A stretch of 64,000 nt of DNA from Flaccisagitta enflata (GCA_965153355.1 OZ231126.1:34410001-34474000), one strand, 5' to 3'. Numbered from the stretch's first letter, positions 9,898-59,047 are shown. The notes: generated by a model from the sequence alone, not told the origin. Numbers and translations: made by a program.

Positions 9898-12338
9898 CCC
9901 AGCCACAAGACTTTAATCTAATCTCGAGGCTCAAATCCCACCTTCAAAGCTCTGATTCTACCTTAGATGCTTCAGCCCAAGCCTCCATGCTCAAATTCAA
10001 GCCAATTAGGGCCACTACCCCTTTCACTACCAATTACTATATCAGGGGGCGTTTCTACTTCTGGTCACAGGTCAAAGAGTTTTTTTAAGGGCCACAGATC
10101 TCTACTCATTTCAGTCTGTCCATCCGTCTGTCAGTCCGTCGGCCCATCTGTCACTGGTTCTTAGTCACTGGTTAAGCAACTCCATAGCAGGCTCTGAAGA
10201 TCCATAACACAAAATTCTGAGCGACGCAAATCCGCTGAAATTCTGATTTGTGAGCATTACGGTCCCTGCTTAGGCAAATTACAGCCCCGCCCGCCTACAA
10301 ACTGCCCCTGCCCGCTCGATTCCTGCCCCTACCCACCGCCAGCAACTAATTTTTGGGGCAGCGGCCCCAAAGGGGACAAAGTCCTGTTGAACACAGGGGG
10401 ACTTTTGTCCGTTAGTTTGTTTGTTTGTCGATCCATCCGTCCATCCGATTGTCCCCCACATGCCCTCTCAGGCCTGAAATCTGTCCTCTCAGGCTTGAAA
10501 TCTACCCTCTCAGGCCTGAAATCTGCCCTCTCAGGCCTTGAATCTGCCCTCTCAGGCCTGAAATCTGGCCTCTCAGGCCTGAAATCTGCCCTCTTGGGCC
10601 TTGAATCTGCCCTCTTGAACCTCAAATCTGCCCTCCTAGATTCAAGGCCTGAGAGGGTAGATTTAAGGCCTGAGAGGGCAGATTTTAGGCCTGACAGGGC
10701 AGATTTCTGCCCTGGTAGGGCCTGGGGGGACGGGCGGATGGACGGATGGACAAACGAACAGACAAACGAAAGTCTCCCTGTGTTCTATAGGACTTCGTCC
10801 CCTTTGGAGCCGCTGCCCTGTTTCCTCTCACTCCAATTAACAATCATGCAAAGCAGGGCAATGGGTATCGCTGACCACATGTTGTATCCAGCCTTGTTTA
10901 ATTGCGAGCGGTTTTTGCATTACTGCTCCTGCCCAACTGTCCGCAACTGGATTGCCGTGTATCTGGCTTTGTTGTTCTTGTTTTTGCAGTGAATGAATTC
11001 TTTGAATTCAAATTTTCGGTTAATACGGAGTTTCATGTTTCAACAAAGACCCAATACCAAAGTAGCGTGTGGGTGAGCAGGGACAGTCATGAATAAGCTA
11101 ACCCAAGCATTTGGGCAAGAGCTTATTGCAAGAACCACCCGTAAACGCCAAAAAAGCTAACAGTGATGGACTGACCAACAGATATAGCGGGTTAAAGGTT
11201 GTATGCCGCTAAAAACATACAGGATATAAGTATGCGAAATACATTTAAAAATCCGGATACATGGCTAAGTTACATGTGGGTGGGCGGGGGCAGTCAATTT
11301 AACGGTTAAAAAAGCATTCGGGCAGCAGAAGTAATGCACCCGTGAACCACCCGTGAAAGCCAAAAAAAAAAACAGAGATACAGACCAACTAACCAATGGA
11401 TGGACTGACAAACACCAAGGGGCACGACCGGTTACAGAGTTGTGTGCAACCAAAAAAAAAATATGGAAGTGATATACTAAATAAGTCTGTCACCAACGCG
11501 GCACAAGTGTCAAATAGTTGTAAGAATGAGAAAACTCAGGCGTAAGAGAAGCATTGCATATCTCACTGCACTGGTTTCTCCGCGACAGAGGGTTCCGTCA
11601 TGCCGAGGCTGCAATATTTGTAAATTCAACTCAGTATGCCATGTCTTACCGACCGAGCATCTGATACATGACAGAATCCAAGAATTTAGATCGCCGAATC
11701 AACGTAAGGCTCAGGCTTAATCGATCTTAAAGCTTAATAGTAATATCATTACTCTTAACAAAGACTTGATGCATGATGATACCTGCAGCTTTAATTAGTT
11801 GAGAAGTTGCATGTAGGAAATGATTTTTGATATGATCAATCCTCCGACATTATCTAGGTTATAGTTTAACGAAGCTCATCTGTCAAAAGCTCGTCAGAGA
11901 CATCTCCCTTCAAACTGCCCATTTCCTCATTGCCATCTCCATAAACCCTCATAGTCTACCGAAATTCTCTTTTTTTGTCCTCACGCCTCGACGAAACAAC
12001 CAAACGTTAATCTTTGACATGTATATTATCATCTCCGTTGTCTGCATCTTCCTCACGTTTTGTTTCCTTGTAATATTCGGCGTTCACCTCTGGGACGGGC
12101 ATGTGTACATTGAGCGTAAAATCTTCATCTGAGAAAATCGACCACTCAATATCATCATCTATCCACGATTCAGCGGTGAAGTTCTCTGAAGTTTTTGTAA
12201 GACGTACATGTAATGTTAATCAATCATCACTGATCAATCCAGGAAAGAATGAAAAAATACATAATTTGTGACCAATTTGGCACCTGTTGATATAGCCGTT
12301 TAAAAAAGAGCCATAATTCCAATTAACATGAAATTAAC

Positions 12339-13234
12339 TATAATTTACGCCCACGAGTTTCAACTGGCACTGTCTATGAGCGTCTATCTGACTGACGACT
12401 TGTGGTGAAAGAAAGTTGGCCGATTGGAAAATAGGAAGGCGATCGTCTTGTTTATTCCATAAAAATTTCAACAACTGAAGAGAGGGGGAAAAATGAAAGG
12501 GAAAGTGGGCGTTAATTGTGATCAGCAAACGCAAAAGATAACATGAAATCGAGATAGGACACAATAAAGGACAGAAACAGCACATGACAACATGTTCATC
12601 TTCTTCAGAGCCCATGCCACCTGATAATACCTGCCCCTGCCCCGGCCCATCCCATTAAATTCATCCATATCATCCCTATAGCAAGCTGATCGGGCAAGCG
12701 ATAAAAACCATACTAAAATCCGGCGATAAAAATGCAAAAGGGCAAAAGACAAAATAACAGACCGGAGGACAAAAATAAAAAACAATGATAATAAAAGCAA
12801 ACACGCGTCTATAAAACTTACTTTTAGCCCACTGCTGGTTTCAACCCACAGTCTGTCGAAGTCAAATTAACGCAATGTCCGCTCATTAGTTTATCTGCAA
12901 TAAAGATGAGAGATTATTGAAATTAGTGAATTCCAAGCATTCAACGATCACGAAAAATCAATCAATCACTTTAAGAAGCAATGCCGCAAATAAATAAAAT
13001 CAATCAATCCAAAAAATTGGATGATACGAAAGACGAGATACGTATGTTCGCCTACGTAATAAAAACAAATGGCACAAAATACAAGGCGCAACCATATGGT
13101 TACCCATCTAGCGTTCAATATAAAAAATGGCGAGAAACAAAAGACGCGGCATTGAATAATCGAAGAAGAGAAAAAGCCAAAAGCACGCAAAAGAGACAAA
13201 AGCACACATACCGGACGGACATACATTTCTAACA
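12339..13234 (-). repeat. 3' LTR (896 bp), TGTTAG...AATTATA on minus
   Basis: Matches 22571-23483 apart from a few substitutions and small indels; adjacent to PPT and TSD. Confidence 0.95.
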
Positions 13235-13249
13235 TTCTGCCCCATTTTT
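13235..13249 (-). promoter_or_regulatory. Polypurine tract AAAAATGGGGCAGAA
   Basis: Purine-rich run immediately 5' of the TG of the 3' LTR on minus. Confidence 0.8.
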
Positions 13250-14715
13250 GGAATTTCACGAATTTCAAAAATCCGACATCTAGTTTCCAGTCGGGGAAAC
13301 CCTACTAAAAAACCGATACTACCTTCCTTAAAAAAAATTTACATAGACACACCCCCGCCTCTCCCTCGTCCACTGCCTCTTACATCCCCACCCTAACTAT
13401 CAACAGATCGACGACTGCACGAATGATGATTCCGTCCGGAAAGGATCCACCACCAGCAATTGCAACGATCAATGACGAGCGGATGGAGACGAGGCGGCGA
13501 CGAGAGGAGTGTGGAGGCGCCCGTTCTGAAAAAAGTTAAAGGGAAGGGGGGGGAAGGAAGGTTTGGAGCACTCCAAGCTTGGATTTGACTTGAGAGTGGA
13601 AAATGATAAGTGGGGCATATTACTAAACATGTCATACGAAAGTATTCAGATAATGACTAAAAAGACCATGTCTAAAACAAACACAACAAATTTACATGTT
13701 CCAAGGAACCAAACAAAACAAGACAAAATAAATAAGTTACTAACTATATATAAAAACGAATCTGTAAGGTAAAAAAATTAGTAAGTATCATGGAACGACC
13801 ACATCACCTGCGCCTTCTCCATTACAGAGACGAGCGGATCATTCCGGAAGCTCCAACACCTCGTCAATCCGTGGGCGAAGCGATAAATGATGTCGGCTAC
13901 CGCATCGAAAGGCGCAGGTGGTGCAGCTGTCTGAGAATGTATCCTCCCCGAAGGGAAGAAAAGGAAAGAGAAAAAATGGGGCAGATTGATTAGTAAAGTT
14001 CTTATCGCACACGATTCAAATTTACAACAAAACTCAACCTCAACCCTTCTGCCATGAAACTTACGCGGGCGTTTTTACCAGCCCCGGGGGACGTCATTCC
14101 CACGCCCCGGGTAGCGCCCCCGACTTGGCCGGCCTGTCCATCGATGGGATGAGGATGCGAAGGTGGAATACGATCCTCAGCGAATGGCGGCGCTCTCCAC
14201 GCCATGTTGCAAATTGGTAGTTAAGTTGAACAGCAACTGGGCGTGGCACCAATCAGCGTTTAGCTGGCGGTCTGATTTTTCCAAGGCCTGGTTCGATTTT
14301 TCTTATTCCCAGGCTTGGATCCGTACGACGTCGACACGTCGGCTTCTGCCTCGAGACGCTGCTGACGGGACATCTTGACTTCGACGAGCGACTTCAAGAT
14401 GCGAACTGACTTCGTAGATGGAATGACGTCGTCAGCGGAAGCTTTGAAATGTTCGTATTGAAGAACTGATAAAGGTAAGAACGGATTTGGCACAATAATA
14501 TGTACATATAGACAGAGCGAAAGAATCAGTGTTTTGATGTGTAAGTGGAAATGGACAACATAATTGACAAGAGGAAAGATGAAAGCATGGATAATCAGAA
14601 CCAAATATGAATAATAACAACTCTTTGTAAATATAACAAGTCAGAGTATCAATCACTCATATCTATAGTTACTAATGGACAGGCCCCGCGCCTTTTTCTC
14701 AAAACTTAGCGTTTT

Positions 14716-17700
14716 TTATGAGTCCAATTCCAGCTTACGCTTCAAAAGGTCTTTCGTCACGATCTTTCCATCTTGCCGCCGGATGTGAGCCCTCCGGACA
14801 TGGGCTGACGAACCCTCGACGCCCATGACACGTCCTAAGCTCCAATTGTGACGAGGTAGCGTTTCGTCCATGACGATGACCATGTCATCAACCGCAAAGT
14901 CTCTCTCGGATCTCGACCATTTGCTTCGCGGAAGTAGAATAGAAATATTCGACCTCCACGATTTCCAAAATGCATCCACACGCGATTGCGACGCCTCCAT
15001 TGAATTCATGAGTGGTCAGAATTGACGCCTTGTTGCACCAGATCCAGAGGGGCATGGGCCGGATGTTGATGGATTGAGGATATGATTCGGTGTAAGGGTC
15101 CCAGAGTCATTTGGATCATCGCTGAGCGCTGTTAGAGGACGGCGATTGAGAATTCCTTCAACTTCGACAACGGCAGTGTTGAAGGCGTCGACGTGGAGGA
15201 TGGCGCCAGTCGAGATGGAAGCAAGATGGCGCTTAAAGAGAGCGACGATTCTCTCCCACACCCCTCCATAGTGGGGTGTTCTCGGCGTGATAAAATCCCA
15301 CCGAAGGCCGCGCCGCTGAACTCGAGTTACGAGTGGTTCCAAGCTTCCATTTCCTTCTTGAGGATGTTGTTGGCGCCGACTAGATTCGTCCCACAATCTG
15401 ATGTGAAACGGCGGATTCCTGGGCGCCTTGCTGCTAAGCGGATGATTGCATTTACCATCGCATCGGCTGACATGTTGAAGAGCAATTCCACATGGACGGC
15501 GCGTGACACGAAACAGGTGAACACTGCGATCCACACCTTGTGATCAGCACGCCCGTTCATTTTTACCATGAAATGCCCCATGACGTCCAATCCAGTCTCT
15601 GCAAAGACAGGCGCCGGATTGACGCATTTGATGGAAGATTGGCCATTTGCTGATTTGCGTTCTTTTTAAAGTTCTTCTGGCATCTAAAGCACGTGTTGAC
15701 GACGCTCTGACGGCCTGAAGACCTTTTGTAATCACACAAATTGGCGTAATTGGCACAATGTATGCTTTGCACCCGCGTGAAAATCATTATGATGATAATG
15801 GCGAATTAATGATTTCTCATTCTCGTCTTTTGGCGGCAGGATGAAGGGAAATTTAGCGTCATGAGCGATGTCGGCGTTTTCCAATCGGCTGCCGACGCGA
15901 AGGATGCCGTCGTCGTCGACGAAAGGGTTCAGCTTCCGCATCTCCTTGTTCTTTATGATAAAGTCACGACGGCTTTCTGGCTTGAAGACTTTTCCCAATT
16001 CCAATTGTTCGAAGACGTCAGAATAATGCTGCCGCTGCATTGACTTGACGAGCTGTTTGCGCGCCTCCTCCACGACGTCTTGCGTCACTTCCGGTTTGGG
16101 AAGGAGATCTTTTGTTGCTCGTGTCTTCGCCCTTGGATACGCTCTCCACCTTTTGACTGCGATGAGAACCATGCCGATAATCCGCAATTTCTGCATCCAT
16201 TTTCCCCGAGAAGCGGCTGCAAGAAGTATCGCGTCAGCCACTTGTTTCTTTTCACTCTCAGCCGCATACAGAGCGGCGACCTGTGCAGAAATAGGGCACG
16301 TCGCGATGTTCGTCTTTGGCCATTGATCTTCGGGAAGACGCAAAAATGCAGGGCCGTGATGGAATTGACGCCATTTTTCGGCTTCATGGGCCTGGATGCC
16401 TCTGCTACAGTGGTCCGCCGGGTTGTTTGACGAGTCAACCCAGCGCCACTGTTGAGGATCAGACCCACTATGGATCTTGGAGAGACGATTGGCGAAGAAT
16501 ACAGGCCTCGGTTTTGCCGGATTGTAAATCATCTTCAGTGCAGATTCAGAATCAGACCAAAATCTGACGACGAGATTGTCCAAGTTGATGGTCCTTCCGA
16601 CGAAGCGTTTGAGCTGCACTGCTTTTTCTGCGGATACAATCTCGACACGTGGAACGCTGTTGTGATGAGAAGCACGTTTTGGATTGAGTGGGATGACGTG
16701 AGATTTGGAGGCAAGGAATGAAATGTGAACATCTCCATCTCGGTTGACTTGACGTCGATATGCAACTGCTCCATATCCGCCTTTTGGAGCTGCATCGCAA
16801 AATAACTCGATTGTGACTTCCGCAATGTCGCTATTGTCGACGCCGCCATTCCACCAGCGTTCAATTCGATATTGTTGTAGAAGAGGCCAAGATGAAGTAT
16901 AGCGGAAGAAAGATTCCCCGACGCTCTCTTCCAAGGGCGAATCCCATCCCACTTCCTGTGGACGACAGAGTTGAAGATGTCGTTTGCACCGATGTATGCG
17001 CTGGGCTCCAAACCAATGGACGTAGTCGCTTTTGCATAGAGACCAATTGACGAGGTGTAAGTGGTTTAAGAGTTTTGAATTTTCGTCGAACAGTACAAAG
17101 ACGTCTTCCGCCGGAAGCCATGAGACGCCCAACACCTTCGTCGGCACATCATCTTGCTTATCTGAAATGGGGATTGGCATCACCGTGGCTAAAAACCACC
17201 CCCGACGCAGACCAAAGACCAACTAACCCCTTAACCAACCCGCCATCCATCCCGCCTTCAGCCATCGCCGCCACTGAATCCACCTTTAGTTGCAGTGCTT
17301 CGTCGACCGAATCCCCACCCCCACTTCCGTCGTCGACGTAAAAACCATACGAATAAGATCGTAGACGTTGTAGGGATATTTGGGCCGGATTACTTCAGCA
17401 TGCTTTCTGACGGTGAAAGACGTGACGAATGAGCTGGATTGGCTGCCGAAGACATGTGATAAGAACAGATTCAAAATGGCTTCTCGTAGAGTACGGTCTT
17501 TGAACCAAAAGAATCTGAACAGATCAGCGTCGTCAGGATGGACGCGGATCTGGTGGAAGAACGCCTTTATGTCACACATAAAGGCGATCTTCCACTGACG
17601 AAAACGCATGAGGATGTCCATTAAGCTATTCATCAAATTTGGACCTCCGACGAGCAAATCATTGAGTGAGATCCCGTCGGTCGCCGCACGCGCATCGTGA

Positions 17701-18754
17701 CATACGCGCGTTTTTCCGCGCAGTTCAACAATATGAAGCGGTAAGTACCAGCGCGGTTTCTCAATGCCGTCGTCGTCGTCGACGTTATCAATCTCAATCG
17801 CCACTCCCGTCTCGTAAAACTTCTCGATTTCACGGAAGACTCTTTCTTTGAAGGCTGGATCACGCTTGAAGCGAAAACGTTGATTACCGAGTCGCTTCAT
17901 CGCAGTTGGTCGTGATTTCACTCTTCTCAGAATCTCCATGATTTTCTCGTGATGAAATTTCCATGTGACGGGAGCAAAGTACTTTTTCACAATTGGGCAA
18001 AAATATGTCTTTTCCTCTAACGTTTTGCACGCTCTGACATTTTCAAGGGAATCACCCATCTCCTCTTGCGAGACGATTGATGATGCAAAGTCATGGTAGA
18101 AGATGCGGTCAATGTTGCTGTTGAGGACGCGATTGTCGAGGATGCGATCGATATTATCGTTGAGGACGCGGTCATCCGTCGCGATAGCGTTGATCGACGC
18201 AATATCTCGTCCTCTCTTGCCCGTTTTTCCACATACAGTCCAACCGAATAGACATCTGAAGCAAGTCAAAGATCCTGAAGGCCCTCGACGGATTTCTTGA
18301 GCGACGGCGGCATCCGCATGCGCCGCTCCGATGATCATCATCACACCGCCTTCAGCTTCTGGAAATTTTATGCCTTCGATGTGAGGTTGGTCAGATAGGT
18401 CGCGGAGAAAGGAGGAATGTCGCGTTCACTCGTTAACAAATCACCCACCAATGCGTCGTTGACGTCGACGACGTATTCTTCGTCGACCGATTGCATAGTG
18501 AATGATGCGATGAAACGATCCTCAACAACATGACTTCCCACAGTAATCACCGTCATTTGCACTGTTTTTGTTGGAATCAGAAGACTGCGAATGACATTGG
18601 TACTGATCACGTCGCGATCAGCGCCTGAGTCGATCATAGCGTAAATCGCCCCCTGCGCACCCGAAGAATTGTTTATGATAGTCACTGGAACAATCGGACG
18701 GACAACGCCGCCGAATGAAGAGACGACCGCGACGTTGCTGCCGCCGCCAGTCAT
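14716..18754 (-). pseudogene. pol: BEL/Pao pol (aspartic protease, RT, RNase H, integrase), frameshifted as assembled
   Basis: Protease AMIDSGAD; RT DIKAFFHQI...FRFFW and FYVDD (shifted frame near 17340); RNase H LFCDAA..YGAVAY, PRVE, FWSDS; integrase HHNDFHAG+CFRC, LDVMG, SDCGTN, PHYGGVWERIV; C-terminal FWKSW/WSLGRV segment. Confidence 0.93.
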
Positions 18755-18773
18755 GCCGTGACGTTAGAAGAGA

Positions 18774-21700
18774 TCACCTCCGTAGATTGGCTGCCTCCGC
18801 CGTCGACGGAGCTGTTGGTGCTGCTGCAGCCGCATCCTCTGACTTTTTGAAGGGAGCCAGCGGTACTTTATTTCCCTGCTTGTTTTCTCCTTTCTTCTCT
18901 TCCCTTTCTTCTTTCTTGTAGGTGCGCCCGTGGAGAATCGTTGCGTGCCGCTTCTTGCAGGTTTGGCAAGTCGGTCTGTTCGCGCATCCTTTGGCGTTGT
19001 GTCCTGGCGCGAGACAGTGGAAGCAAAGACGACGAGACATGATCTTTTGAACTCTCGCGTCCACTTCCAACTCTAACAGTTGATGACATTCTTCTGTTTG
19101 ATGCATTCCACTGCAGACGTTGCAGCGGTCCGTCGACTGCGTCTTTTGCTTGCCATTGGTCAAAGCATCTTCATATGATGATGGCGCTTCTTTCTCTGTA
19201 GTTGCGACTGCTGCCACTGATGCTGTTTTGCAGCTTGCGCCTTTGTTGCGCTGAATCACCGCCCATGTCTCGATCATATTGACCAAGTTGTCGAATGAAA
19301 ATAATTGTCCATTTTGGGCTGCTTCATGTTGCTTTTCCCAGAATTTATCTGCAAGATGAGGGACCCTCTTGTTGAGGATCTCCTGCAGCAGCTCGTCACG
19401 ATAGCATTGTTGCACTTCTCCACAGGTCCTCGCAATCTTCTTTGCCTTTTGCAACCTTGCAGACAAATTGAAATGCCTTGCATGGTCGGCCGACTGGATC
19501 TTCAACCGCGACGATTTCCTGAACAGCGCCGCAATGTTGCAGCGCCTCGCCATGAAGACGACGTCCATTTTTGCGAAGGCGTCGTCAATCTCTCCTCTTG
19601 CTGTCGCTTCAGTTGCATCAATCGTCGCAGTTTCAATGATCTCTTTTGCCGGACCAGCAAACCACTTAGGCAATTCCAATAAGATGTCCATTTGCGTCAA
19701 GCCCTCATGCTTCTCAGCATCTTTGAACTTCCTCTTCCACATCATAAAGTCGGTGGATGAAAGCTCCTGCAGAGGCTTCTCAGGTCTTGCTCTCTCCAAC
19801 GCTTTGAGGCCGACCTCCCTCTCTCGCATGAGATCATTGTACGTCGTTTCTTTCCAAAACCTGTCCAGAGCTGGATTGTTGGGCATCTGAACATGGACTT
19901 CCGGTTGACGGGCTACTTGATGATGCTCCACTTGATGATACGCTGGGGTTGTTGGATGAAGGCATATTGACCCCCGACTTTTACCGGAGATCTCTTTTTG
20001 GTGGTTTTTACACTCCACCCAACTTCCTCTTGCTGATTCACTTGTTGTTGACGATCATCTTGATGGAATCTGGGAGCATCAAAATCTTGGCGGACGTACT
20101 GTCGCTGTTGTTGTTCTTCTTTTCGTTGTCTCTCTGCTCTCGCTGCGGCAAGGTCAAAGTCTCTCTGCTGAATCTGCATCTTCAAACTATCCACTTCTTG
20201 CTGCAAACGTTGATTCTGCTGGATGACTTCCGCTTGAGGCGTTGTTAGAGGCGCTTGCGCTACTTTCGGCGCCTTTGGCTGCAATCCACTCGTTGTCTTC
20301 TTGGGAGCGACTTTTCTTCTTTCTTTATCTTGCAGCTGCTGGGCCAACTTCGCGTCAGCGGCCTCTTGCTTCTGCCTCCTGCGCATCGCCTCCGTCGCAT
20401 CACCTCCGCTTCCGGCTGTGTTGAAGACCTTTTCCTCTTGATGGGGAAGACCAGTCTCCCTTCTAGCAGAACCAATCTGCTTCTCGAAGATCACTCCGGT
20501 GCGGTAGGGAGAATCGTTGCTGCTGGGGTTTGATGATGCTGATCCTGATGCTGTTGCTGTTGTTGAAGCCGCTGCTGCCACTGTTGATGTTGAAGCTGCT
20601 GTTGCTGGTCAGGACGCTGTTGCTGTTCATTCTGCTGCTGCAGTTGACGCTGGCGCTGTCCTTGCTGCTGCTGCTGCTCCAACTGTTGCTGCTGCTGCAT
20701 CGGCTGCTTGACGGACGTTTCCACTGACTGCACATGACGTTGCTGTATGTTCGAATTGAACAATCCCGGATTGAAATTTCTGAAGATAGATCGACGGTCT
20801 TTTGACGGATGCTGCGGCTGCTGCTGGTCCAGCTCAGACAGTTGTCTAAGCTTCACATCCCGCTGCTCTAAAGCTCCACCAATGCCGCCGTCGTTCAGGC
20901 TATTCCAGTGCTTTCGTTGCATTTCTGCCGCATTGTTGAATACTCCTGCTCTTCTATCTTCATCTCGTTGCTGCTGCTGGCGAAAGTTACACATTCTGTC
21001 ATATAACTCTTTGTCTTCTTGTGATGAGCTTCGCTGTTGGAATCCCAATGGCACCGCGATCGGCGCCTTTGGAGCTGTTGCTGCACCACCACCTTCACCT
21101 TCAGCCATCATGCGCAGACGTTGATCTGCAAGGCGTTGCTGTCTCTCTTCTTCTGTCTCCTCACTGACGTTCATGTCGACAAGATGGTTGTTTGAAGCTG
21201 GAGGATCCACTACCACCGCTGGGATTGCGGCGGAAGGTTGCTGTTGCTGCTGCTGTTGCTGTTGCGTATTTTCTCCTGCATCGCTTTTGCCGCTGTTGTT
21301 GTTGTTCAGCGGCTGCATTGCCGCTTGTCGCAGCTCTTGTTGTTGCTGCTGTTGCTGTTGCTGCTGTTGATCGTGTGTTGTTGTTGCTGAGCGCCGGCGC
21401 AGGATCTGTTGACAAAATTGTTGGAGTTGCTGCAACTGCTGCTGCTGCAACAGCTCTTGCCGCTGCCGCTGAGCCGTCGCTGCTGCCTGGTGGTCGGTGG
21501 AGTTGACGCTGTTGTTGGAGTTGCTGCCGCTGCATCTGCACTGATGCTGCTGCTGTTGCTCCTGTTGCTGTCGCTGCTCCTCCTCCCGTTGTTGCTGCTG
21601 CATATCGTCAATCAGCCGACGGCCTTGTCGCATTTCCTCCTCCAATTGCCTGCCCCATCTGTCTCTCTCAGCACTCCTGTTGACGAAGCGTCCTCGCCCT

Positions 21701-22507
21701 CTCCTGCGGCGTCAATCCGTTGATGATCCCACGGCCTCTGCAGAGCGTCGGCGTCGCCGAGATCCGCAAGCATGTCGTCAGCTTGCTCCATCGGAGACGC
21801 ACGCGCAGGTTCAATTTCCGAGACCAAATCTGATACCCATTGATTGACGGCATCTCCTCTTTGGATCGGCGGCAGATTTAAAAATTGGCCGCCAGTTGGA
21901 GATTGCGCACCATGTCGCGGGACCGGAAGTGGTAGATACTCGGATCCGTCGGGGTTTGGCGAAGACGTTCGCATCCTTGGAGTTGGAGCGCCAGTAACAT
22001 TGTCACGGGCGGCGTGAGTGTCAGTTGGAAGACTGTTCCATGAGAATTCGTTGACGGGTCTTTTGCGATTCCCAATGTCATTATGCACTGCGTTCACGAT
22101 GTCGGGCTGGAAGGAAAACCCTCTGGATAGTTTTCACGATCAAAGAAACGCATGGAGTCCCACTCGCGCCGGATTCGACGCAAAGAAGACGCCGCGAATC
22201 GAAGAGGGTCGCCGGGCATCGAGTCGAGCGCCATTTGTCTTGCATACGATATAAAGTCGTAGACCATGTCCCGAAGGCCGTGTCGAGCGCCATCCGATTC
22301 ACAGGCGGCGTCGTCGAAGTCGTTCGTTCCTTCGGTGCAAGTAGAAACGGCGTCGAAAAGGCGCCGGCATCCTTCCATTTCCGCAGTGATGTCGTTCCTC
22401 ATTGCGCGCAAACGATTCGACCTCGGACACTGATTCAAACCGAAGTGAGATACACGAGATGACGTTGAAGCAGTCGAGACGGTGTCGTCGTTACGCGCGG
22501 CTGCCAT
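18774..22507 (-). pseudogene. gag: BEL/Pao gag with long Q-rich N-terminus and three zinc-knuckle motifs, frameshifted as assembled
   Basis: ATG 64 nt after the 5' LTR; overlapping ORFs 22507, 22097, 21645, 20581, 20018; CNVCSGMHQTEEC, CFHCLAPGHNAKGC, CQTCKKRHATILH. Confidence 0.88.
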
Positions 22508-22570
22508 TGTCCAATTTCGCTTTCGGAGGTCGAAGATGAAAAGAATCGAGTCGTTTTTAAATTTTTGAAA

Positions 22571-23483
22571 TATAATTTACGCCCACGAGTTTCAACTGGC
22601 ACTGTCTATGAGCGTCTATCTGACTGACGACTTGTGGTGAAAGAAAGTTGGCCGATTGGAAAATAGGAAGGCGATCGTCTCGTTTATTCCATAAAAATTT
22701 CAACAACTGAAGAGAGGGGGAAAAATGAAAGGGAAAGTGGGCGTTAATTGTGATCAGCAAACGCAAAAGATAACATGAAATCGAGATAGGACACAATAAA
22801 GGACAGAAACAGCACATGACAACATGTTCATCTTCTTCAGAGCCCATGCCACCTGATAATACCTGCCCCTGCCCCGGCCCATCCCATTAAATTCATCCAT
22901 ATCATCCCTATAGCAAGCTGATCGGGCAAGCGATAAAAACCATACTAAAATCCGGCGATAAAAATGCAAAAGGGCAAAAGACAAAATAACAGACCGGAGG
23001 ACAAAATAAAAACAACGATAATAAAAGCAAACACGCGTCTATAAAACTTACTTTTAGGCCCACTTTCGTTGGTTTCAACCCACAGTCTGTCGAAGTCAAA
23101 TTAACGTTAATTGTCCGTTCATTAGTTTATCTGCAATAAAAAGATGAGAGATTATTGAAATTAGTGAATTCCAAGGGCGCATTCAAACGATCACGAAAAA
23201 TCAATCAATCACTTTAAGAAGCAATGCCGCAAATAAATAAAATCAATCAATCCAAAAATTGGATGATACGAAAGACGAGATACGTATGTTCGCCTACGTA
23301 ATAAAAACAAATGGCACAAAATACAAGGCGCAACCATATGGTTACCCATCTAGCATTCAATATAAAAAATGGCGAGAAACAAAAGACGCGGCATTGAATA
23401 ATCGAAGAAGAGAAAAAGCCAAAAGCACGCAAAAGAGACAAAAGCACACATACCTAAGGACGGACGGACATACATTTCTAACA
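22571..23483 (-). repeat. 5' LTR (913 bp)
   Basis: Direct repeat of 12339-13234; followed on plus by TSD TTAAC. Confidence 0.95.
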
Positions 23484-23884
23484 TTAACCATAGATAGGAT
23501 TTTTACAGAAAATACATCATGACAAGTAGTGTTAGAGATGATTTTATCTCTGAAAAAAATCAATTTTATCCATGTGAAAACTCAATTGCAAATTCAGAAT
23601 GTATGCCGTGTATACACTGTTACACATATTTCATTCTTTTTCTTGTTCCCTTATTGTAATCTATACTAATCATTCATGCCATCAACTTGCATCATGTATG
23701 GGCTTTGTTGCAGATGAACATCCCAGAGCCTTTTGGCCCCGTCTAATCTTCGCCTAACTCGCACCAATTTGGTCTTAACCTCAACTGAGCCCACTTTTTT
23801 TGACATTCAGGTGAATTTTCTCGTGTCAGCCTTTTTTCCAGACGACTTGGCCTCACTCCCAAGAGTCACCGACGGAGGGAGGAG

Positions 23885-58378: not shown

Positions 58379-59047
58379 GGCTTACGTGTAGGAGAGGACC
58401 GGACTTTTTTTAGCGTTTTAACGAGTTTTTTTTTCACGAAAATTTCAAATCTGAAACAAGAGAACAATTTAGGTCAATGATCCGAGCCCCTTACCAAACC
58501 CTACCCCACTACCCCTACCCCTAAACCCACCCCCTACCCTAAACCTAAACCCTAACCCTACCCCTAACCCTAAACCCCACCTCTACCCCTAAACCCTATC
58601 CCTAACACTACCCCTAACCCTAAACCTACCCCTACCCCTAACCCTAACCTCAACCCTACCTTAACCTTAAACCTACCCCTACCACTAACCCTAAACCCCA
58701 CCCTACCCCTAACCCTAAACCCACCCCTACCCCTACCCCTAAACCCCACCCTAACCCTAACCCTAAACCCTACCCCTACCCCTAACCCTAAACCAACCCC
58801 TACCCCTAACCCTAAACCCACCCCTACCCTAAACCCACTACCCTAAACCCACCTACCCTAAACCCACAAACCTAAATCAACAAGAAATCAAAGAATCATC
58901 GATAAATCAACATAAATCAACAAGAAATCAATAACTCGACGTAAGAAGTAGAAGCGAGAGTGAGAAATAGTCGAGAGAGGCCGAGACTCGGCTGAAAACG
59001 AAAACAAAAGACATCGCTCTAGTCCGGTCCTCTCCTACACGTAGACC
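58379..59047. mobile_element. TIR element carrying a telomere-like (CCCTAA/CCCTAC/CCCTAAA)n array
   Basis: TIR GGYYTACGTGTAGGAGAGGACCGGACT; 8-bp flanks GGCAGTGC / GGCAGGGC (one mismatch); array ~58490-58875. Confidence 0.8.

Follow-up and report, generated by a model that had tools for sequence, protein, structure and literature searches.

A marine BEL/Pao LTR retrotransposon family without a tRNA-type primer-binding site, read as a candidate for Tf1-like self-priming

The 64,000-nt stretch of DNA analysed here (the window) carries on its minus strand, at 12339-23483, a BEL/Pao LTR retrotransposon in which the sequence after the 5' LTR offers no site of the kind to which a tRNA primer would anneal, and this raises the question of how minus-strand DNA synthesis is primed. 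An earlier note on this DNA had proposed pairing of the primer-binding position with a motif next to the polypurine tract (PPT), for tRNA-independent priming or for circularisation of the genome. From the comparisons described below, Tf1-like self-priming in the window's BEL/Pao family emerges as the best reading, at a probability of about 0.5, with a site in the LTR itself, and not the PPT flank, as the partner.

The two LTRs aligned with 891 identities over 921 columns (97%), 23 of which were gap columns, and a short target-site duplication as well as a PPT before the 3' LTR were found, as in BEL/Pao elements (Table 1). Among the internal ORFs, the sole Pfam match was PF05380 (Peptidase_A17, the Pao peptidase; E = 1.1e-20) in the ORF at 15732-17222 on the minus strand. 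A 1312-aa pol protein from a metagenome contig (P0001), 89% identical to this ORF, was placed by tblastn at 18637-14719 with frame breaks, and PF05380, PF17921 and PF18701 were present in relatives at 89% and 71% identity. As pol was located on the minus strand by both the Peptidase_A17 match and the tblastn of P0001, the LTR at 22571-23483 is the 5' LTR. In a quick tree, the window family was placed among animal BEL/Pao proteins. The pol is of the Pao type (order protease, RT, RNase H, integrase) that characterises BEL/Pao (Belpaoviridae) and not of the Ty3/gypsy type expected by descent in the Tf1/sushi clade; the element may work like Tf1 without belonging to that clade.

The Pao pol and the frame breaks together identify the window copy as a decayed BEL/Pao element, and several of its single-base indels were missing from most or all other contigs of the DNA runs placed on the element. 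It is an old, frameshifted member of a highly repeated BEL/Pao LTR retrotransposon family of a marine animal. In one DNA run (X1), 36,628 contigs matched the element, of which 13,264 were at least 99% identical to it, and the family was also found in two marine metagenomes.

Table 1. Features of the element and of the candidate pairings; positions are counted from the first letter of the window.
Feature	Position	Strand	Description and basis
5' LTR	22571..23483	-	913 nt; sense TGTTAG...AAATTATA; 97% LTR-LTR alignment; ends set by the ttaac duplication
3' LTR	12339..13234	-	896 nt; LTR-LTR alignment
Target-site duplication ttaac, copy 1	12334..12338	.	5 bp, read from the sequence
Target-site duplication ttaac, copy 2	23484..23488	.	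5 bp, read from the sequence
LTR-internal partner site, sense AGTTGTTGAAAT	22697..22708	-	putative first transcript bases; starts at the A of TCAGTT
LTR partner site, copy in the 3' LTR	12465..12476	-	same sequence
AATAAA, putative poly(A) signal	22683..22688	-	sole AATAAA on the LTR sense strand; 8 nt after the partner site
Primer-binding position, sense ATTTCAAAAATTTA	22558..22571	-	last LTR base + 13 nt; includes the 11-mer 22561-22571
Likely gag start codon (ACAATGG)	22505..22507	-	proteins of P0122 and P0121 begin here or in frame
pol (protease to integrase)	14719..18637	-	frameshifted in the window copy; tblastn of P0001, Pfam
3' motif of the earlier note, sense ATTTTTGAAAT	13262..13272	-	exact complement of the window's primer-binding position only
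Local hairpin	13244..13272	-	11/12 pairs; overlaps the 5' part of the PPT; no stabler than shuffles
Polypurine tract, sense AAAAATGGGGCAGAA	13235..13249	-	abuts the 3' LTR

On the sense strand, the end of the 5' LTR (...AAATTATA) is followed by TTTCAAAAATTTAAAAAC. The first TGG was located 58 nt downstream of the 5' LTR, 4 nt ahead of the likely gag ATG (22507-22505), and G or C was present at only two of the first 18 nt after the LTR, a composition which, to our knowledge, is unlike that of any cytoplasmic tRNA segment of this length. The statement of the earlier note that no TGG-type primer-binding site (PBS) follows the 5' LTR was borne out, there being no TGG within 57 nt; the 18-nt PBS complementary to a host tRNA 3' end by which the ICTV characterises BEL/Pao is accordingly missing, and, as in Tf1-type elements, no tRNA-type PBS adjoins the 5' LTR. 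The same junction of LTR end and leader was observed in other copies of the family (P0121, P0126 and P0129-P0134), so the missing TGG site is not a private deletion of the window copy. Given that a TGG-first site is absent and that the junction is common to copies, priming without a tRNA is a reasonable idea; in this respect the earlier proposal is supported, whereas the partner that it named in the PPT flank is not, as detailed below. A search of the window with ARAGORN returned zero tRNAs, and Rfam gave nothing at gathering thresholds.

A PBS inside the LTR end (TGGGCGTAAATTATA) was considered and rejected, since this stretch is contained in both LTRs and the target duplication sets the LTR end after it. 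The stretch TGGCAGCC at the gag start was likewise rejected as a PBS, being 65 nt away from the LTR end on the downstream side and sharing bases with the start codon. The TG of the gag ATG, with which this stretch begins, was kept in P0121 and P0122, and the TGG 4 nt before the gag ATG was lost in P0123.

The complementarity on which the earlier proposal was built was confirmed. The 11 nt at 13262-13272 (ATTTCAAAAAT), which are separated from the PPT by 12 nt, form an exact reverse complement to plus-strand 22561-22571 (ATTTTTGAAAT), and the duplex is lengthened by two G-U pairs on one side. No further exact occurrence of the 11-mer was found in the 64 kb, so that the pair is unique in the window. 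Among about 39,400 random pairs of a 33-nt and a 60-nt window drawn from the same 64 kb, an exact complement of at least 11 nt occurred in 0.18%, a chance rate not corrected for the note's free choice of sequences to compare; with one mismatch, the 11-mer was encountered 9 times, with 6.2 expected. The PPT-flank site gave the top duplex energy in the element (-12.6 to -13.8 kcal/mol), rival sites being present in the LTR (-12.4 to -13.0 kcal/mol) and, once, in pol (-13.4 kcal/mol). Compared directly, the LTR and PPT-flank duplexes reached -12.4 and -12.6 kcal/mol, respectively, with a 25-nt probe, and -13.0 and -13.8 kcal/mol with a 29-nt probe, for which several unrelated sites in the element attained similar energies. 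Outside the element, -12.4 kcal/mol was reached by 129 of 21,096 windows (0.6%).

The local hairpin described in the earlier note, with 11 of 12 pairs and covering part of the PPT, was also recovered, as it is present in the minimum-energy fold. Its stability is like that of shuffled sequences, though (z = -0.49; 64 of 200 shuffles fold as well). The partner of the 3' motif in this hairpin is a stretch at the PPT that closely resembles the primer-site motif.

A second partner for the primer-binding position was found within the LTR. In the register starting from the last LTR base, the window sequences form seven pairs, one G-A mismatch and four further pairs, which means that 11 of 12 positions pair with one mismatch, in keeping with the LTR-to-post-LTR complementarity of about 11 nt of the Tf1 type. 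The 3' motif beside the PPT agrees with this LTR site at 9 of 11 aligned positions. TCAGT is an initiator consensus, and the AATAAA of the LTR is situated 22 nt after it. Since the partner site starts at an initiator-like A and lies 8 nt before the sole AATAAA, it probably contains the first bases of the transcript; judged from the sequence, 22697-22708 would be the transcript start, where R begins, and the putative poly(A) signal would imply a short R of a few tens of nucleotides.

When 22712-22500 was folded, the minimum-energy structure and the centroid structure alike paired the putative 5' end with the primer-binding position; the 213-nt leader overall folded no better than shuffles (z = +1.47). 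Complements of the LTR site, with G-U pairs tolerated, occurred five times in 128 kb (both strands), two of the five being the site itself on the other strand. When initiator-like motifs combined with an AATAAA and a helix from +1 were sought in a generic scan, only weak, G-U-rich matches were returned. In the poly(A) RNA run X22, only low-complexity stretches of the element were covered, and the few words that RNA runs X15-X20 share with the element are not evidence of expression.

To which of the two partners the primer-binding position belongs was judged from the other copies of the family. Sister copies were read as proteins whose open frames cross the LTR end and the leader (P0121, P0125-P0129 and P0130-P0134), and the codons of these proteins were threaded on the window; as proteins do not give the third codon positions, "compatible" here means that pairing is allowed and not that it is proven. 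Eight other copies were readable at the primer-binding position, five of which share one 90% cluster, so that about four independent lineages are represented. At motif position 8 (plus-strand 22564), the window has A, while six of the eight copies have C, two have Y and none has A. C or Y is unable to pair with the U of the window's PPT-flank motif, so that, on the 5' side, the complementarity to this motif is lost in all eight copies; the alignment of further copies, suggested in the earlier note as a check, goes against the partner named there, which depends on the A. The exact 11-mer match to the PPT flank is thus owed to a base peculiar to the window copy.

With G5 of the LTR site, on the other hand, the C or Y at position 8 of the other copies does pair. 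In each of the four copies covering both sites (P0126, P0129, P0131 and P0134), there was no incompatible position over 12-14 nt. In P0129 and P0131, from a diverged subfamily, the LTR site is 2 nt longer and the primer-site codons past position 11 differ, and 14 of 14 pairs are allowed. In P0128 and P0129, whose LTR reading frames are just 43-45% identical to that of the window, few or no changes were seen at the LTR site, in the AATAAA or over the final 30 nt of the LTR.

Several further searches bear on the sampling of relatives. The frame that crosses the PPT flank on the minus strand (12969-13301) shares words with no protein of the searched collection. Among the 40 of 518 base differences that were listed, none fell at the two motifs, which is uninformative either way. 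A protein-profile scan of viral contigs yielded no relative, and the 16-nt pattern of the PPT/LTR junction matched 14 stretches in viral contigs, none of them similar to the element by blastn. From the metagenome scan came 66 loci, none of which exceeded 51% pol identity or belonged to the window's own family, and a scan of prokaryote genomes delivered one distant relative (L067).

Under the self-priming reading, the course of events would be as follows. In copies other than that of the window, the 12-14 nt counted from the last LTR base would be complementary to the site that precedes them by about 125 nt within this LTR, and the RNA's own 5' end would fold back onto the primer-binding position. 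RNase H would cut the RNA duplex, and the short RNA released in this way would prime minus-strand synthesis through U5 and R; we infer the transcription start, the RNase H cut and the priming alike. In the window copy, the A at position 8 would break the pairing with the LTR site and at the same time complete the 11-nt match to a look-alike motif in the PPT flank. The 5'-3' duplex of the earlier note most likely arose incidentally as this copy decayed.

Sixty-seven relative loci were compared with the window family. Distant relatives (L015, L016, L021 and L025) have the ordinary form, in which the LTR ends with ...ACA and is followed by one T and then TGGTAGCAGAGC. Helices parallel to that of the window family were observed in two other BEL/Pao families. 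The locus L012 has no TGG-type site and contains a 13-nt exact helix between 640-652 and 721-733, with the first arm 7 nt before an AATAAA and the second arm 2 nt after ...ACA and 21 nt ahead of the first ATG; in 30 control windows of the same locus, helices stayed below 13 nt. The locus L001, which falls in the same well-supported clade as the window family in the quick tree, has a 12-nt exact helix (13 nt with one G-U pair), the sole helix of at least 12 nt in 2.2 kb of non-coding sequence. Its AATAAA is located upstream of the LTR site, which would leave a very short R, and the L001 helix may for this reason be only structural. For both L012 and L001, the ends of the LTR were deduced and not taken from a second LTR. 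Within 100 nt upstream from the 3' LTR, the post-LTR sequence finds a complement of just 6 nt in L012 and 5 nt in L001, compared with 13 and 12 nt to the LTR site, so that the comparison with related families, also put forward in the earlier note, reveals no long PPT-flank complement in these two.

In a test for long helices in the 250 nt before gag at 15 loci, only L012 stood out, the L001 helix lying outside this span. The tree relatives of L012 (L009, L010, L013 and L017) have no such helix, and in L067 the LTR-to-post-LTR match is just 8 nt.

Some additional observations were made at these loci. In the L012 metagenome contig (455-760 and 7150-7255), the LTR start TGTTAAC... follows the PPT GGAGGGGGAG; the layout parallels that of the window family and the sequence is unrelated. 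At L010:20-40 and L009:795-845, TCAGTT occurs shortly before AATAAA in the presumed LTR, as in the window, and no long complement was found in L010 and L009 between the LTR TCAGTT region and the following leader. A long third ORF follows pol in L001 (9031-10560), L002 (2510-4804) and L037 (8370-10619), with lengths of at least 510, 765 and 750 aa, respectively. Pfam assigned no family to these three ORFs, and those of L001 and L002 are dissimilar to each other; they could be env-like genes.

The explanation given in the earlier note, namely that for priming or circularisation a duplex forms between the primer-binding position and the motif lying 12 nt upstream of the PPT, and that the hairpin is the alternative state of a switch, is very improbable in light of the family comparison. 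It draws on a match that is exact, extended by G-U pairs, unique in the window and seldom equalled by random window pairs, on the best duplex energy in the element, and on a motif able to form the 11/12 hairpin with its near-copy at the PPT. Pairings between 5' and 3' regions are, moreover, known in LTR retrotransposon RNA from Ty1 (CYC5-CYC3) and Ty3 (bipartite PBS), and the duplex in the window would likewise join the primer-binding region to the region adjoining the PPT and U3. Yet the required base was present in none of the eight other copies, leaving position 8 unpaired with the window motif in all of them, so that a pairing of the Ty1/Ty3 kind between the PBS region and the PPT/U3-proximal region, read here on its 5' side, is exact in one decayed copy and not kept in 8/8 others. 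It has no analogue in L012 or L001, where the complement to the PPT flank is just 6 and 5 nt; the hairpin region is no stabler than shuffles; and the LTR site, nearly equal in duplex energy, lies close by in the same RNA. Priming from the PPT flank would also require a cut deep inside the RNA, and we know of no case of priming by this route. A combined arrangement can be conceived in which the primer-binding position has two partners, the RNA 5' end for Tf1-like priming and the PPT-side look-alike for circularising the genome and bringing the 3' R to the strong-stop start; the PPT hairpin would hold the look-alike in reserve, and the A at position 8 would be a lineage variant favouring the 3' partner. 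We regard this arrangement as very improbable, too.

A different primer, be it a small RNA or, as in copia or Ty5, a tRNA fragment (internal or half), is doubtful but deserves to be kept in mind; the helix between LTR and primer-binding position would in that case be a structural U5-leader stem, as in retroviruses. The missing TGG-type site is compatible with this, as is the position of the AATAAA in L001, which suits a structural stem better than a 5'-end primer, and half-tRNA primers are reported in Ty1/copia lineages (PMC6317226). The scarcity of G and C in the first 18 nt of the leader, however, argues against a tRNA segment, and the complementarity has its start precisely at the final base of the LTR, the place required for a primer's 3' end, and on its far side at an initiator-like A. 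That the complementarities are without function, being chance complements of AT-rich sequence in dead or non-autonomous copies that have lost their PBS, we consider unlikely. The motifs are indeed AT-rich, one-mismatch 11-mers are about as numerous as given above (9 for 6.2 expected), 0.4-0.6% of windows attain comparable duplex energies and the window copy is plainly decayed. Set against this are the great abundance of the family, with thousands of contigs at 99% identity or more, and LTR pairs with target duplications, from which it follows that the family retrotransposed with this leader. The junction is, furthermore, common to copies of diverged subfamilies, and an independent 13-nt exact helix occupies the same place in L012.

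Tf1-like self-priming, the reading preferred here, has a published precedent. In Tf1, the PBS is bound by the first 11 bases, and RNase H separates base 11 from base 12 (PMC7175516). According to PMC7175516 and PMC6317226, self-priming is demonstrated for Tf1 and otherwise only predicted, in some Ty3/gypsy and Ty1/copia lineages; the groups so predicted in the latter source are Tf1/sushi and Tcn1 (Ty3/gypsy) and TAR (Ty1/copia), and 6% of plant elements are given there as being without a detectable PBS. With Tf1/Tf2 of Schizosaccharomyces pombe, Tf1/sushi, Tcn1, TAR, Houba and Osr-1, the window family shares the lack of a tRNA-complementary PBS, and with Tf1-type elements a post-LTR sequence that complements the probable first transcript bases in the LTR over 11-14 nt. 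It differs from Tf1-type elements in that its pol is BEL/Pao and not Ty3/gypsy or Ty1/copia, in that its duplex takes in the last LTR base and one G-U pair, and in that the 5' end, the cut and the primer are putative.

In the ICTV profile of the Belpaoviridae, replication is primed by a host tRNA, and the PBS is given as an 18-nt complement of the tRNA-Arg or tRNA-Gly 3' end (PMC8742986). The window family resembles typical BEL/Pao elements (Belpaoviridae, genus Semotivirus) in its Pao-type pol (Peptidase_A17, DUF5641, integrase), in LTRs within the published 0.2-1.2 kb, in the 5-bp target duplication and in a PPT of about 10-15 nt; it is unlike them in having no 18-nt tRNA PBS (PMC8742986), and the absence of a tRNA-type site is a departure from the ICTV description of the Belpaoviridae. 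In the literature searched, no title or abstract dealing with self-priming in BEL/Pao was found; much of the older retrotransposon literature and of the subscription literature lies outside it, and an earlier report is possible. If the window family and L012 do self-prime, self-priming would extend to the third large group of LTR retrotransposons and, by the quick tree, to at least two of its clades. This would bear on whether hairpin priming is ancestral or has arisen repeatedly, and it would mean that annotation pipelines demanding a tRNA PBS miss or misjudge such elements.

Further peculiarities of the element concern its ends and its coding region. The window LTR ends with ...TTATA and not with the usual ...CA (window 22571 / 12339), and the last 10 nt of the LTR differ between copies, three versions being implied by the protein records. 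The distance from the gag start to pol is about 3.9 kb (window 18640-22505), which is long for BEL/Pao; only the last third of this region matches the gag of L001 (tblastn 19823-18918), which has a zinc knuckle, and its N-terminal part shows no recognisable family. From pol to the PPT, the distance in the window copy is only 1.5 kb. At window 13360-13362, the summed contig depth was 10- to 10,000-fold below that of neighbouring listed positions in all three DNA runs (in X1, 37-1,202 compared with about 135,000-440,000), and this 3' untranslated stretch seems to be rare or very variable among copies. Outside the element, an interstitial CTAACC array of about 54 copies (the TTAGGG telomere-type repeat on the other strand) was located at 58509-58876, and the whole window was unusually rich in microsatellites, with 82 tandem-repeat rows.
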